Shown piece after piece: positions 3,450 to 23,820 of a DNA stretch of 64,000 nt. The stretch lies in the NCBI RefSeq assembly GCF_053078305.1, contig NZ_CP166879.1. One strand, written 5' to 3'. The stretch's first letter is position 1, and the number at the start of each line of letters is the position of its first letter. The notes below the pieces were generated by a model. That model was given only the letters and a program-made list of their open reading frames with translations. It made no database searches and was not told the origin of the DNA. The position numbers and the translations under genes were made by a program.

Positions 3450-3823
3450 CGTTTCGCCTCCGGATGCTTACCCCGGGTAATGTTATTTACCGTTCTGTAA
3501 TTGTCGCGGGTCATCAGGCCGGTCGCCCGGCGAGCCCGGAGGATATCAATACTGTTTATTAACTGAGAGCGGGGACTAGTGCTGAACCGGGGCTGGTCGG
3601 TACGCACCAGCGCGTATTTTTCAACGAGAAAGTTCACCGCGTCACACAGTGAAATGCCTGCCTCAATATGCTGCTCAATCACACGTTCATCGGAGAACGG
3701 TGTGTCATTTAGCGTGAGGCCGTAGTGCTGGTCCAGCAGTCGGGTGAGCAGTGTCTGCCAGATGGTTACTGGAGATGGGCAGCGCGATGCCTCCCGTACG
3801 TGTGTGTCGGGTAATGTGTTCAT
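3446..3823 (-). CDS. cbtA: CbtA-family toxin (YeeV/YkfI/YpjF-like, cytoskeleton-targeting)
   Basis: 125-aa product closely matching remembered YeeV sequence (…WQTLLTRLLDQHYGLTLNDTPFSDERVIEQHIEAGISLCDAVNFLVEKYALVRTDQ…). Confidence 0.85.
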   Translation of the reverse strand: MNTLPDTHVREASRCPSPVTIWQTLLTRLLDQHYGLTLNDTPFSDERVIEQHIEAGISLCDAVNFLVEKYALVRTDQPRFSTSPRSQLINSIDILRARRATGLMTRDNYRTVNNITRGKHPEAKR

Positions 3824-15238: not shown

Positions 15239-16106
15239 ATAGAGAGGAATACGCACGTAATGATTAAATGCTTTTGTTACACCATTCTTCCGGCATGAAT
15301 ATTTATCCAGTTCCCTTTTTTATTTGTGTAGTGATACTGTCGGAATAGCGTTCAGTAATGTGAAGCGTCCTGTTAAAAATCTTTAATAAATGTGTCACCC
15401 TGGTCAGGAAATATCTGCTGAGATATTATTAGTTGGTGGTGTTTTTACTGAGTAATAGCTGGCTTTTAATTCCTGAACTGAAATACTGTCGCTCGTCAGG
15501 GTTTAATTAAAACTGGATGATGATGTGAAAATGAAGGCTGGTTTTTGTGTTTGTCGAGGAAGTGTTGTTTTTATCCATTCTCATCATTGGCTGGCTGCGA
15601 TTATACAGAAGTATTTGAAGAAAAAATGGTGCATTTTATCTGTGCCGGCAGGGAGGGGGATTTTCCTGATATGTCAGTATTAAATGGTTTTTGTTATTTA
15701 TAAAAATGTCATCCTGTCCATAGAATATTGTACTGAGTACTCAGCATTCAGCGCAGGAACTGTCATCTTCTTTATTTTATTCTTCTTCAGGAGGGCAGTT
15801 TTCTGAAAGCGTTACTCCGGGGAAACTGTTTATGTTTATTCCCGGCAGGAAACCCGTACCTGCAATACCCTGGATGATGCTTTTTGCTGGTACGTTGTTG
15901 TGTGAAAATTAATCAACATGTGTGCTCCGGAGAGCGCCCGTAGACGCACAGATTCATTCTGACATTCTTTAGCGACAAAATATCGATTGGTTATTATTTA
16001 ACCTGAAAATCGACAGAAATTTTTATCCTGTATTGATTCTGATGCTATTTTTGCTATTAGTAGCAATAGTTGCGGTACTTTATGTTCTGTGTGTTGTAAG
16101 GTCATT

Positions 16107-17597
16107 ATGCCATACTTTCAGTATCCTGATGAGTTTCCCCTGAGCTCGCTGCCTCCACTCATTCGTGATGCCGTTATTGAAGCTCAGCAAATCACGCAGG
16201 CTCCCCTGGGGCTTGTGGCAGCATCTGCCCTGGGCGCTGTTTCACTTGTCTGCCAGAATCTGATTGATGTCTGCAGACTGAATACACTGCGGGGGCCGGT
16301 TTCTCTTTTCTTACTGACGCTTGCTGAGTCCGGAGAACGAAAAACCGCAGTGGACAAATTATTAATGGAGCCCCTGTACCAGCAGGAGATGCTGTTATAT
16401 TCCAGACACAAAAATGAACTGACGACATGGAAAAATAAGGAAGAGCTTTTAAAGGCGCAGAAAAAAGCATTGTTGTCAAAACTGAATAAAGAACTCCGCA
16501 AAGGCGCGGATGAGTCAGAAACGCTCAGACAACTGGAAGCGCTTCAGAAAAACAGAGGGGAAAAACCTGTAAGATATAAATTCATTTTTAATGATGCCAC
16601 GACAGCAGCAATTAAAGATCAGCTTTGTGGTCAGTGGCGTTCAGTGGGTATCATGTCTGATGAAGCCGGTATAATATTTGATGGGTATACCCTGTCTGAG
16701 CTGCCTTTTATTAACAAAATGTGGGATGGCTCCGTATTGTCGGTGGACAGAAAGAATGAACCCGAACAGATGATTGAAAATGCCAGAATGACATTATCTC
16801 TCATGGTACAACCCGGTCTTTTTGACCGATATATGGAGCGAAAAGGTTCTGTTGCCAGGGACAGTGGTTTTCTTGCCCGTTGTCTAATCAGTAAACCTGC
16901 CACCACGCAGGGGAAACGCTTTATTAACGGAGCAGTGACCCCGGGAGAATCATTAACGGCATTTCATGAACGATTAATGGAACTGGCCAGAGGCAGTATT
17001 GAAAAATCCAGTAAGGATGAACGTTATTGTCTGCATTTTTCTCCAGAAGCGCAAAAAATATTTATTGATCACTATAATGTTCTGGAGCAGGATTTGTCTC
17101 CTTCCGGACCCTTAAGCCAGTTTCGGGGGCATGTTTCAAAAAAAACAGAAAACATTGCGAGAATTGCTGCGTTATTGCAGTATTTCAGTCAGGGTGAAGG
17201 GAAAATCTCTGCCGATATCATGACGTCTGCTGTCGTAATAAGTTCGTGGTACACAGATGAATATAAAAAATTATTTGCGTTACCTGATGAATCTGAACTG
17301 CAGCTGCAGGACGCCCGGGAGCTGCTCGACTGGCTCATTGAGGAGTGCCGCGGAGAATGCCCGCCCCGTGTCAGGAAAAATTATATTCTCCAGTGTGGCC
17401 CGGGCCGGTTCAGGAACAGGAAAAAGCTGAACGTCCTGCTGAACATTCTTGCATCTCAACTCAGGCTCTCTGTCGTGCAGGAAGGAAAAACCACCTATGT
17501 CCTGCTTTCCGAAATAAACAATATCACGCTGCCTGAACTGAATGCGTGCTACAGCCAGAAACTGATAAGATGGCATGAGCAATCCTTTGGCTTATAA
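16107..17597 (+). CDS. DUF3987 protein (YfjI-like; related to P4 alpha primase C-terminal region)
   Basis: ~496-aa ORF with AAGGT RBS before ATG 16107; family assignment from memory of island-borne YfjI-like proteins. Confidence 0.55.
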   Translation: MPYFQYPDEFPLSSLPPLIRDAVIEAQQITQAPLGLVAASALGAVSLVCQNLIDVCRLNTLRGPVSLFLLTLAESGERKTAVDKLLMEPLYQQEMLLYSRHKNELTTWKNKEELLKAQKKALLSKLNKELRKGADESETLRQLEALQKNRGEKPVRYKFIFNDATTAAIKDQLCGQWRSVGIMSDEAGIIFDGYTLSELPFINKMWDGSVLSVDRKNEPEQMIENARMTLSLMVQPGLFDRYMERKGSVARDSGFLARCLISKPATTQGKRFINGAVTPGESLTAFHERLMELARGSIEKSSKDERYCLHFSPEAQKIFIDHYNVLEQDLSPSGPLSQFRGHVSKKTENIARIAALLQYFSQGEGKISADIMTSAVVISSWYTDEYKKLFALPDESELQLQDARELLDWLIEECRGECPPRVRKNYILQCGPGRFRNRKKLNVLLNILASQLRLSVVQEGKTTYVLLSEINNITLPELNACYSQKLIRWHEQSFGL

Positions 17598-17718
17598 TGT
17601 TCCCTGTTGCTGAGACGGATTATTCAGTGGTGGTATCGCAGTATGCCCGTCACCCCCCGCTTCTGCATGAGGGTGACGGAGGAAAAGTAAGTGTGCGGAG
17701 GCCCGGGAGCGTTATGAA

Positions 17719-18420
17719 TCAACAGGCGTATAACAGGTACTCGTCAATCATCAGTTCCAGCTCGCGCTTTTCCCGTTTGCGCGCCACAGCCCAGTTTTCA
17801 AGCTCTGCATGTGATTTATGCTTTAACTCTTCAGTCCAGGGCTGCATGGAGTGGGCACACATCAGATCATACCAGCACAGCCATATCAGCGTGTGGTAGA
17901 GATCACGATCGTCGAAACGCCGGAGCAGGCTGTTCAGCCTGTTTGCCAGCCGGTTTTCACCCAGACGATGTGGCTCACTGAGTAAAACGCCGCCCAGATT
18001 AAAATGTGTAAGCAGCATGATTTCATGGGTCTGAATGCTGGTCATTAACCCTTCCTGAATGGCAGGAATGAACGGTGGTGTTCCCGGGTTGACGACCTGA
18101 TAGAGTCCCTGTGGTGCCACTGAGATGATAGTGCCTTTTTCCGGCAGAAAAAAGTGTGCCAGGGTCAGACGGTGATAACCATGAAGATGCGGAGACCCCA
18201 TTCCATGAGCGACGATAAGCCTCGTTCTGATGCTGGATGAGCAGCAGCTCACACCGGTTTTCAAGTTTTTGCATAATATTCTCTCCTTTAGCGCGCAGCA
18301 AAATGCCTCCGGGGGCCGGATCATGCCTTTGCTGCGGTGGAACGGATAACGGTCAGGAATTACGGACGGGACTGTGCAATACGCGCCTGCAGCCAGGCTT
18401 CCACTTCGCTTTTCAGCCAT
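17719..18420 (-). CDS. Hypothetical protein, probably frameshifted or with a later start
   Basis: Long ORF overlaps alpA by 60 nt; a GGAGAG-ATG start at 18265-18267 opens a different frame (ORF 18023..18301) that runs only 92 codons before stopping, with the long frame offset from it by one base. Confidence 0.3.
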   Translation of the reverse strand: MAEKRSGSLAAGAYCTVPSVIPDRYPFHRSKGMIRPPEAFCCALKERILCKNLKTGVSCCSSSIRTRLIVAHGMGSPHLHGYHRLTLAHFFLPEKGTIISVAPQGLYQVVNPGTPPFIPAIQEGLMTSIQTHEIMLLTHFNLGGVLLSEPHRLGENRLANRLNSLLRRFDDRDLYHTLIWLCWYDLMCAHSMQPWTEELKHKSHAELENWAVARKREKRELELMIDEYLLYAC

Positions 18421-18566
18421 CGGGAGCTACGGCCCAGTTTGATGGGGGCAGGAAAGGCACCATCCTTGATGAGCTTGTAAAACCATTTATCGGTCAGGCC
18501 GGTCAGCTGAGTGATAAACGACATGTCGACCATCTGGTCATCCATCAGTGAAACTGGGGTATTCAT
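18360..18566 (-). CDS. alpA: AlpA-family phage/island transcriptional regulator
   Basis: 68-aa product from Met at 18566 with GGAGG RBS; AlpA-type HTH (…LTGLTDKWFYKLIKDGAFPAPIKLGRSSRWLKSEVEAWL). Confidence 0.75.
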   Translation of the reverse strand: MNTPVSLMDDQMVDMSFITQLTGLTDKWFYKLIKDGAFPAPIKLGRSSRWLKSEVEAWLQARIAQSRP

Positions 18567-18951
18567 GAAAATGTTCCTCCGGATGTTGTTAATCTCAACC
18601 AGCGTTGGTGATGAAAACAACGCACCACCTTCCCCGGCATAACAACCGGGGAAAAACGTAAAAAATGAGTAGGGGAATATTCCTGCCAGGAGAGAAACTG
18701 TTGTGTACAGGCAATACAGGTTGTCTGTTTTGTCAGTGAAGCCGGTATAAACGGAAGATGATTTTGTGTTGCCGGAATATGGGATGGCGTTTTGCCGTGA
18801 CGGGATCAGTATTTTCAGTGATGATTATTACTGCACAGGGGAGTATCGGAGATAAACCACGCCCTGTACCTGCCAGAGCGGTGGTTTGTATTTACTGAAC
18901 GGAAGATAAAGCAGAGGTAAACACTGTCGCGGTGAAGGTAGAAGGCTGAAA

Positions 18952-19743
18952 TTATTCTCTGTAATTACAAACAACAGTGATCTTATCCGGTTTTTTTACC
19001 GTTACGGGTTTCAGAGGGTCAATTTTATATACAGGGGTAATGAGCACGCCGGAATTTATGGAAAAAAGAGGGACCCAGCAATAAACGTCCGGATATTTCT
19101 GTGTCTCCGGAATACCTTTTGCGCCAGAGACCATCAGATCTGTAACGCTCACAAAAAATGACTGCCGCAAATCAAAAAAGTACTCGTTATATATCACATC
19201 CTTTGCCAGCAGGATGACGGCATTACCAACAGCCGCTTTTACAGGTATTTTATCAGATGGATTATCGTGATTGTATATTGTTCTTTCGATATAAATAAAA
19301 CAGGCATATTTCGTCTTCTCCCCGGATAGCTGCATCTGGTATTCGCAAATGTCTTTGATACACCGACTTTCAACCCTTCCAATCATCTTATCCCGGCGAT
19401 AGTGTCTTTTATGTTTCAGCGCGTACAGAACACCATTTGAACTGTCAAACTCCAGGATTCTTCTGGTGAAAAGTTTGTTTTCCCAGATTTCCAGACAATA
19501 CTTCTCTGCACTGACGACATTGCGTTTGCGAGGAAGATCCCGTTGATACACTCCATTTAATAAGCGTGACTGCAGTTCGCCTGCAAGTTGATAATAACAG
19601 TTAATATCGTTAAGGACAGGTGCTGTGGCGCTGAGTAATGCGTTGATTACCTTAGAGCGCGAAAGTTTGTGGGTATGACAGTACTCATCCACAATTCGCA
19701 GCGTCTCATCACTGGTCATATTGAAAGTTATACGTGTTGTCAT
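18952..19743 (-). CDS. Hypothetical protein with N-terminal ribbon-helix-helix-like region
   Basis: 263-aa ORF in visibly AT-rich DNA; N-terminus TRITFNMTSDETLRIVDEYCHTHKLSRSKVINALL has the strand-helix-helix pattern of CopG/Arc-type RHH domains; remaining ~215 aa unassigned. Confidence 0.5.
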   Translation of the reverse strand: MTTRITFNMTSDETLRIVDEYCHTHKLSRSKVINALLSATAPVLNDINCYYQLAGELQSRLLNGVYQRDLPRKRNVVSAEKYCLEIWENKLFTRRILEFDSSNGVLYALKHKRHYRRDKMIGRVESRCIKDICEYQMQLSGEKTKYACFIYIERTIYNHDNPSDKIPVKAAVGNAVILLAKDVIYNEYFFDLRQSFFVSVTDLMVSGAKGIPETQKYPDVYCWVPLFSINSGVLITPVYKIDPLKPVTVKKPDKITVVCNYRE

Positions 19744-20995: not shown

Positions 20996-21595
20996 ATGAA
21001 GACTTACAACGCCAATCCCGGTTACGAAATGGATCCCCAGCTCCTGACACACTTTAATCAGCATCTGGATTCATTATTCGGGGTCTATTCGAAGCTGTTA
21101 CCGTTCAGAATGGATTTTGCTTACCGAAAAAACACATTCAGCTACGGATGCGCCTGCAGGTACGCCATGTGCGCGGAGATGCTGCAACTGATTAACGAGG
21201 TGGGAGAGAAACTGGTCGGGTATGCCTGGGTGATGGAATATACAGAACGTAAAGGGCTTCACATTCATTTTGTGGGCTATCTGAACGGTCAGATCCACAG
21301 GAGTTCGTATCTGGTATCCAGATTGATGGGAGATATCTGGAGGCGGGTTACCGGGGGGGATGGTTACTACCACTGGTGCCGGTTTAATAAAAATTATCCG
21401 GTAAACATTAATCACGTCATTCACTATTCAGACCACAAAGCGGTGAATGCTTTACGCTATGCCATTAGCTACCTTGCCAAACGAGAACAGAAAGAATGTG
21501 GCATCGTTCTTGGTTGCAGCAGGCTTCCTGAAAAAAGTCACCGGGGGCGACCGCGACTGGACAGCACCCTGCCGGGGATATGTTCTCAGGTATAA
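20996..21595 (+). CDS. HUH-motif protein (candidate inovirus-Gp2 / YagK-YfjJ family)
   Basis: 199-aa ORF with GAGGAAG RBS; candidate HUH motif (GLHIHFVGY) and Tyr motif (RYAISYLAKRE) resembling rolling-circle Rep/relaxase motifs II and III. Confidence 0.5.
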   Translation: MKTYNANPGYEMDPQLLTHFNQHLDSLFGVYSKLLPFRMDFAYRKNTFSYGCACRYAMCAEMLQLINEVGEKLVGYAWVMEYTERKGLHIHFVGYLNGQIHRSSYLVSRLMGDIWRRVTGGDGYYHWCRFNKNYPVNINHVIHYSDHKAVNALRYAISYLAKREQKECGIVLGCSRLPEKSHRGRPRLDSTLPGICSQV

Positions 21596-21970: not shown

Positions 21971-22360
21971 ATGACGATGTACGCAAAATCTTTTCTCGCA
22001 TTCGATGGCAACGGATGCCTGACCGTTGCCCGTACTGCACAGACAGCGCCTTACGATCGATACACCTGTCACCTTTGCGGCAGTGCGCTCAGATACCACC
22101 CGCAATGCGATACCGAACGTCCCTGGTTTGAACACACTGGCGAAGGGCTGGCTGAGCACGGTCATGAGTGCCCTTATGTCAGACCGGAGCGCAGAGAAAT
22201 ACTGTTGATTAAACGCTTACAGCAATGGGTACCGGATGCCTTACCCGTGGTGCGTAAAGCCAGCTGGCACTGCAGACAATGCCAGCACGATTATTATGGG
22301 GAGCGGTACTGCACACACTGTCATACAGGGCGTTTCAGTGAGGAGGCAGTGGCAGGATGA
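21971..22360 (+). CDS. Cys-rich putative zinc-ribbon protein (paralog 1)
   Basis: 129 aa; CxxC near N-terminus (CHLCGS), WFEH motif, C-terminal WHCRQC-x10-CTHCH zinc-ribbon-like pattern. Confidence 0.5.
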   Translation: MTMYAKSFLAFDGNGCLTVARTAQTAPYDRYTCHLCGSALRYHPQCDTERPWFEHTGEGLAEHGHECPYVRPERREILLIKRLQQWVPDALPVVRKASWHCRQCQHDYYGERYCTHCHTGRFSEEAVAG

Positions 22361-22782
22361 ACGGTCTAAAAACGGGGCTGGGGATGACGCCGGGTGAGCA
22401 CATTATCAGTGCCGATTCTGCGCTCAGCAGAAATATCAGGCATTGTTTCTGCCTTTCCTGTCGTGGTCGGTTGATTTTGCAGACAGATGCTCAGGGGGCG
22501 TGGTTTGAGCATGATTTACATGCCCTGAGCGAGCAACAGAAGGCGGCCTGTGTGGTGCTGAATCCGGAAAAATCCCATCCTTACATTGATGATATGGCGA
22601 TGTTTTTATCGCCATTACCGGTCGTACTGGAGTGGCATTGTGTGATGTGTGAGCAGTTTTTTCATGGGAAGAAATTCTGTGAGGCCTGTGGTACGGGGAT
22701 TTATTGCAGAGCAACATGTACGAAGTCTGTTTACAGCTACCAGCCAGATTTGTACCAGGACTGCGGAGGTGCGAGTACTTAA
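22357..22782 (+). CDS. Cys-rich putative zinc-ribbon protein (paralog 2)
   Basis: 141 aa; same architecture as paralog 1 (CFCLSC, WFEH, WHCVMC-x10-CEAC); start overlaps upstream stop (ATGA), GAGGAGG RBS. Confidence 0.5.
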   Translation: MNGLKTGLGMTPGEHIISADSALSRNIRHCFCLSCRGRLILQTDAQGAWFEHDLHALSEQQKAACVVLNPEKSHPYIDDMAMFLSPLPVVLEWHCVMCEQFFHGKKFCEACGTGIYCRATCTKSVYSYQPDLYQDCGGAST

Positions 22783-23253: not shown

Positions 23254-23820
23254 ATGTATACAGAATCAAACGTTAAGCTTTCCTGTAACGCCCTCTGGCA
23301 AAAGTGTGTCCTTGCAACTCTGTATCGGGCTGCAGCCACACATCCTGAAATTAAATTATTACAATTTAAATTAATACCTTGCCCTGGTATTAATAAGGCC
23401 ATTCCCTCTCTGATGGCTGATTTTACTGGTGAACTGCATAGACTCATTTCTGAATATTTGCAGTGCAAGCGACGTAAAGATAAATCTGTTGAGCCCACCC
23501 CTTTATATTATCTCTGGAGTAGGGAGGCTGTGGCTAACGGTACCACTCCTTATCTTATGGTGCTGCTACTTAATAATGATGTCTGGTGTAAGAGTCGTGA
23601 GGTGGTGGTTCTCAGAAATCTGATTGAGCAGGCGTGGGGAAAAGTATTGGGTGAAGATAACTCCATTACACATCTGGTTGTGTATCCTGAAGTGCTGTCG
23701 TTGGTATTTGATGCAGCTAACACATACAACGCTGAGCCTGGTGTACTGGAACAGACAGCCCGGGCTTACATTGAATCGCATGGTGCTGTTGAACGTTATC
23801 TTGGGTGTAGTGACTTTTAA
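23254..23820 (+). CDS. Hypothetical protein
   Basis: 188-aa ORF with AAGGTGA RBS 8 nt upstream of ATG; no motif recognised. Confidence 0.45.
   Translation: MYTESNVKLSCNALWQKCVLATLYRAAATHPEIKLLQFKLIPCPGINKAIPSLMADFTGELHRLISEYLQCKRRKDKSVEPTPLYYLWSREAVANGTTPYLMVLLLNNDVWCKSREVVVLRNLIEQAWGKVLGEDNSITHLVVYPEVLSLVFDAANTYNAEPGVLEQTARAYIESHGAVERYLGCSDF

Follow-up and report, generated by a model that had tools for sequence, protein, structure and literature searches.

A 17-bp deletion in the gene downstream of alpA, very probably a lineage-specific frameshift pseudogene of a conserved 190-aa protein

Island layout around alpA

Islands of the CP4-57 and CP4-44 type in E. coli carry alpA, yfjI (DUF3987), Gp2-like YagK/YfjJ genes, a YeeP-like GTPase and an Ag43-type autotransporter, and all of these recur in the window, the 64,000-nucleotide stretch of contig NZ_CP166879.1 (RefSeq assembly GCF_053078305.1) that we analysed. 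In K-12 CP4-57, alpA is followed directly by a co-oriented yfjI. The window differs in that a 190-aa gene of no named family, here in broken form, lies between the two and in that yfjI is convergent (Table 1). The identity of the upstream gene as alpA, proposed earlier in a sequence-only reading of this DNA, is borne out by a Pfam match to PF05930 Phage_AlpA (E=5.4e-9; 36.2 bits, gathering cutoff 21), together with HTH_17 (E=5.8e-7) and PHROG excisionase/regulator families; an identical protein is on record in E. coli as an AlpA family regulator. The ATG of the broken gene follows the end of alpA after an 85-nt gap and in the same orientation, and alpA, the broken gene, and both of its overlapping open reading frames (ORFs) all lie on the minus strand.

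Distant homologues of the gene occur in a shared order: a Gp2-like (REP_ORF2-G2P) gene, alpA, an optional small or Zn-ribbon gene, the 190-aa homologue, and then variable cargo. This cargo comprises type I R-M (L023, L024), BrxR-GmrSD with type I R-M (L013, L014), or a VgrG/DUF4123 T6SS module (L026); the arrangement as a whole was seen at L013 5381-12573, L023 4011-10576, and L026 1386-8547. On the cargo side of the window we find the convergent yfjI, the YeeP-like GTPase, and the Ag43-type autotransporter. Because the gene always follows alpA and directly precedes variable cargo, it marks the boundary between backbone and cargo in this island family. Judged from this arrangement, the intact protein would belong to an island backbone module (Gp2-like gene, alpA, 190-aa gene) and not to the cargo. 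Neither integrase nor tRNA genes were found within the window, and the ends of the island are therefore undefined.

Several neighbouring features were recorded alongside. The broken gene and yfjI converge, and the 9-bp inverted repeat that lies between their stop codons (Table 1) is kept in intact loci; it has no T-run on either strand and is absent from the terminator scan, so that a terminator role would be conjecture. No Rfam families were found over 17300-19100. Upstream of alpA, a 263-aa protein (18952-19743, minus strand) has been conserved as a neighbour in every locus; the Pfam scan gave no match for it, but it is assigned PF27701 UCP007319 in precomputed tables. Another 263-aa ORF (62508-63299) is not a DNA-level paralogue of this gene. 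Two tandem paralogous DUF7828 + Zn_ribbon_11 genes of 129 and 141 aa (21971-22782, plus strand) are flanked by YagK/YfjJ Gp2-like genes at 20996-21595 and 23254-23820, and in L026 a member of this Zn-ribbon family separates alpA from the 190-aa homologue. A 1614-aa ORF (43988-48832, plus strand) has internal repeats about 1002 nt apart, seen as paired weak tblastn matches at 45226-45363 and 46228-46365, and presumably encodes a large repetitive surface protein.

Table 1. Positions of the broken gene, its remnants and adjoining features in the window.
Feature	Coordinates	Strand	Details
YfjI-family / DUF3987 gene	16089..17597	+	Convergent; Pfam PF13148, E=2.3e-95; YfjI family in orthologous loci
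Perfect 9-bp inverted repeat	17647..17679		CCGTCACCC / GGGTGACGG; 15-nt loop; between convergent stops of broken gene and yfjI
Long ORF	17719..18420	-	233 aa; +1 frame relative to short ORF (ORF list)
3' remnant	17719..18225	-	Residues 23-190 and stop of the 190-aa protein, +1 frame (tblastn, alignment)
CCA codon, L107P	17971..17973	-	Adjoins invariant S105, E106, R109 and L110; inside predicted helix 99-109
Short ORF	18023..18301	-	92 aa counted from TTG at 18301 (ORF list)
Internal ATG, Met31 of intact protein	18199..18201	-	NCBI start of the 160-aa product
Deletion junction	18225..18226	-	Intact orthologues have 17 bp AATGGATGACAAGCGTG, codons 17-22 K-W-M-T-S/N-V (alignment)
5' remnant	18226..18274	-	ATG 18274-18272 and codons 1-16 (MQKLENRCELLLIQHQ), original frame (alignment, tblastn, ORF list)
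Shine-Dalgarno GGAGAG of the gene after alpA	18281..18286	-	6 nt before ATG; identical in intact orthologues
alpA	18360..18566	-	68 aa and stop; AlpA-family HTH regulator/excisionase, immediately upstream

One gene in two frames

The sequence-only reading had described two overlapping frames offset by one base, and both ORFs are present exactly as it gave them. The ribosome-binding site and ATG that it saw opening the first frame also exist, but some 7 nt from where it placed them: the ATG occupies 18274-18272 and GGAGAG 18286-18281, not 18265-18267. Likewise, its length of 92 codons applies when counting starts from the TTG at 18301, whereas the frame spans 83 codons from the ATG preceded by the Shine-Dalgarno (SD) motif, with its stop at 18025-18023. 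When an intact orthologue was searched against the window by tblastn, residues 1-17 matched frame -1 (18274-18224) and residues 23-190 matched frame -2 (18225-17722), the latter at 98.8% identity over 168 residues (E=3.5e-113). Because homology is split between two frames, the ORF overlap is not due to chance. No second copy of the gene was found in the window by the same search.

Alignment with intact homologues, one of the checks proposed at the outset, revealed one 17-bp gap that breaks the frame in the window. The intact orthologues WP_001518309.1 and WP_001296389.1 are 190-aa "hypothetical proteins" encoded by annotated 573-bp CDSs in DETEC-P1056 and Nissle 1917, where the gene is likewise convergent with a YfjI-family gene. 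In a three-way DNA alignment of both CDSs with the window (99% identical per column), the single internal indel is this gap, and the missing AATGGATGACAAGCGTG falls between CATCAGA and ACGAGG at window 18226/18225. Intact orthologues such as CIW80_RS08915 of Nissle 1917 share locus, SD, ATG, and stop with the window gene at about 99% nucleotide identity. The window gene differs from them in being without the 17 bp at codons 17-22, in being frameshifted, and in carrying L107P. Past the junction, its original frame is nonsense until the stop.

We propose that the gene after alpA is, very probably, a lineage-specific frameshift pseudogene of a conserved 190-aa protein that arose through the 17-bp deletion at codons 17-22. 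The suspicion of a frameshifted gene or pseudogene was thus well placed, and comparison with the intact 190-aa orthologues supplies its cause. The ancestor would have encoded a 190-aa protein with its own SD and ATG, co-oriented with alpA and 85 nt after it, and a single 17-bp deletion (18226/18225) would have shifted the reading frame by +1. Ribosomes initiating at the native ATG would then make 16 native and 67 nonsense residues before stopping at 18023, and the remaining 168 codons would be kept only as an out-of-frame ORF.

Two overlapping frames, the first opened by a good SD and ATG, could instead be regulatory, reflecting a programmed ribosomal frameshift or a phase-variable switch. Homologues at every distance, however, are single-frame, and the window has physically lost five to six codons that are conserved elsewhere. 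Microhomology at the junction is limited to 1 nt (A), with no simple, tandem, or homopolymer repeat and no slippery heptamer present there, all of which speaks against both readings; a deletion outside repeats is, moreover, not reversible. We consider a regulatory origin of the two-frame layout exceedingly improbable. As for how the pseudogenizing deletion came about, the intact allele contains an imperfect 12-nt inverted repeat, GCTGCTCATCCA / TGGATGACAAGC (10/12 pairs, 10-nt loop), at 3456-3467 / 3478-3489 of intact locus L001, equivalent to window ~18245-18226. Its right arm lies wholly within the deleted 17 bp, and we speculate that a hairpin of this repeat might have promoted the deletion.

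Distribution of the deletion and of L107P

We compared positions 17600-18700 with 5,426 complete E. coli genomes by megablast. About 1000 genomes cover the region at about 96-97% identity, with matches 12-17 nt longer than the query, and there the annotation of the locus reads "helix-turn-helix transcriptional regulator" and then "hypothetical protein". A junction probe of 100 nt, centred on the deletion site, was then matched to RefSeq complete E. coli genomes. All 751 genomes that span the site with full-length probe matches carry the 17 bp: each match has 85.5% identity (100/117 columns), meaning an extra 17 nt in every one, and a gapless match occurs in none of these 751 spanning complete genomes. 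The intact-allele cluster holds 1855 member sequences, and three intact alleles are each found on at least 1000 contigs. The deletion allele, by comparison, is known from about 26-30 contigs, among them STEC from reindeer and humans, and an exact-sequence look-up placed the 160-aa product from Met31, annotated as "hypothetical protein", on 26 public contigs.

Sequencing error had been raised as one explanation of the two frames; on that account, the 17 bp would be present in the true genome and the 190-aa gene intact. Draft genomes often show artefactual frameshifts, and the deletion is found in 0 RefSeq complete E. coli genomes. Yet ten carrier assemblies from different projects (L003-L012) all hold the window's 1101-nt region exactly, junction included, and the same junction recurs in Logan contig L015, so the lesion is reproducible across independent data. 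At least two of the ten are PacBio assemblies: the carrier STEC strains 453 and 256 come from reindeer and were sequenced by PacBio SMRT (PMC5323612). The loss of 17 nt in non-repetitive, non-homopolymeric sequence is also untypical of read errors. An artefact is therefore hardly credible. The deletion represents an allele that is fixed and passed on vertically; it is no product of sequencing and no signal for recoding. Flanks of 4.7-6.5 kb in the ten carriers are 99.05-100% identical to the window, which indicates some divergence among carriers. The deletion alleles themselves are identical across the gene in the ten assemblies, and decay after inactivation cannot be read from them. Three features that mark a frameshift pseudogene are found together at this locus, namely intact single-ORF orthologues, homology in different frames on the two sides of an indel whose length is not divisible by three, and a reproducible lesion.

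Two observations concern E. coli 453 (GCA_001902675.1) in particular. At L003 3605-5095 no yfjI is called in this PacBio assembly, although the DNA there matches the window at 99.96% identity and is interrupted by just one 1-nt gap; the probable reason is either a separate frameshift or a PacBio indel. The same locus has an IS110-family transposase in place of the Gp2-like gene upstream.

The substitution L107P (Table 1) was considered as a sign of relaxed selection after the deletion. That reading was ruled out by an intact allele with P107 (P0113), present on two Logan contigs; because this allele exists, L107P probably arose before the deletion. Contig L015 (SRR27599715, 1-977) has the same 17-bp deletion with L107 and not P107, so that all four combinations of deletion and L107P exist. 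Upstream of position ~30, L015 consists of unrelated sequence and has no alpA. Its haplotype could stem from recombination between island copies, from recurrence, or from chimeric assembly. The 160-aa entries with L107 (P0112) were examined as candidate independent truncations and set aside: of the six, five are artefacts of contig ends, and the junction is present in L015 alone.

The native start and the intact family

NCBI annotation handles the broken allele by starting it at Met31, which gives a product of 160 aa (e.g., EFL1982820.1). This entry, also UniRef A0AAP7TW48_ECOLX, corresponds exactly to the remnant ORF of the window from Met31 and belongs to the same deletion lineage. It is annotated as a normal gene; comparison with the intact orthologues identifies it as the 3' portion of a 190-aa gene that has been disrupted.

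A start at a later Met had been offered as the alternative to a frameshift, to be favoured if homologues showed no homology upstream of that Met. Such upstream homology is seen. Full-length members of the family, eight representatives among them, are 174-200 aa long, and at 27-41% identity their alignments to the query begin at residue 2-11; that of a 37%-identical homologue begins at residue 9. The full-length homologues have in common an N-terminal motif, YQxWLxxFTRxAV, which spans the deleted codons, and its core YQxWLxxFTR is conserved in the relatives that argue against a later native start. Modelling with AlphaFold2 from 12 family members (mean pLDDT 88, pTM 0.87) gave a long helix at residues 2-28 (pLDDT 93-94), then a beta-hairpin (residues 42-60), and a C-terminal half made up of helices. 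On this comparison of homologues, we reject the later Met as the native start of what would be the ancestral gene.

A separate question is whether the remnant now yields a working 160-aa protein from Met31 (ATG 18201-18199), as the NCBI annotation implies, with no functional loss. Its 160-codon ORF is open and identical in about 26-30 contigs, most invariant positions of the family lie in the C-terminal 100 residues, and many family database fragments are C-terminal only. Against this, most of the short entries of that kind are contig ends, no SD motif is present in the sequence preceding Met31 (ggcttatcgtcgctcatgga), and ribosomes from the native start would cross Met31 out of frame until 18023. 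Residues 10-30 are conserved in all full-length homologues, and residues 2-28 are modelled as a confident long helix, which a Met31 product, starting at an ATG without an SD, would be predicted to lack. We regard a functional Met31 protein as improbable, if less so than either an artefact or recoding. The model and the missing SD at Met31 suggest that the gene is likely non-functional in the window lineage, where the conserved predicted helix 2-28 would be lost.

The intact family is small: 1.84 billion proteins yielded 55 cluster representatives at E<=1e-3. The 190-aa protein gave no significant match in Pfam, NCBIfam, PHROGs, or PADLOC, and a Pfam scan of 12 family members returned noise only. 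The sole entry from a PDB sequence-profile search, ICT1 at E=0.38, is no better than noise, and Foldseek of the model against BFVD gave nothing at E<1. A literature search on the orthologue accessions found no paper. Among phage records there was one match, at 30.7% identity in a 3.6-kb unannotated record. Nine matches were found in plasmid records, mostly megabase-sized and resembling chromosome fragments; the gene is thus essentially chromosomal. The intact protein belongs to an uncharacterised family that may merit study of its own.

Synteny alone invites some guesses at function. The 190-aa gene is probably co-transcribed with alpA, and its product may act with or under AlpA in island regulation. 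More tentatively, we raise the possibility, which we would not favour over its negation, that this undescribed family without a detectable solved-fold match is the fixed last backbone gene of Gp2-like/AlpA-type enterobacterial islands and a candidate AlpA partner controlling island excision or replication, or cargo expression. If so, the island in this STEC lineage could be locked or silenced by the loss of the protein.

Annotation of these genomes should mark the 160-aa "hypothetical protein" as a fragment of the 190-aa gene in pseudogene form. The 17-bp deletion further offers a clean marker of lineage, distinguishing a group of reindeer and human STEC strains of which some are subAB2-3-positive. 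Within the mosaic island, this is one more decayed gene; the wider point is an uncharacterised, syntenically conserved family beside alpA.
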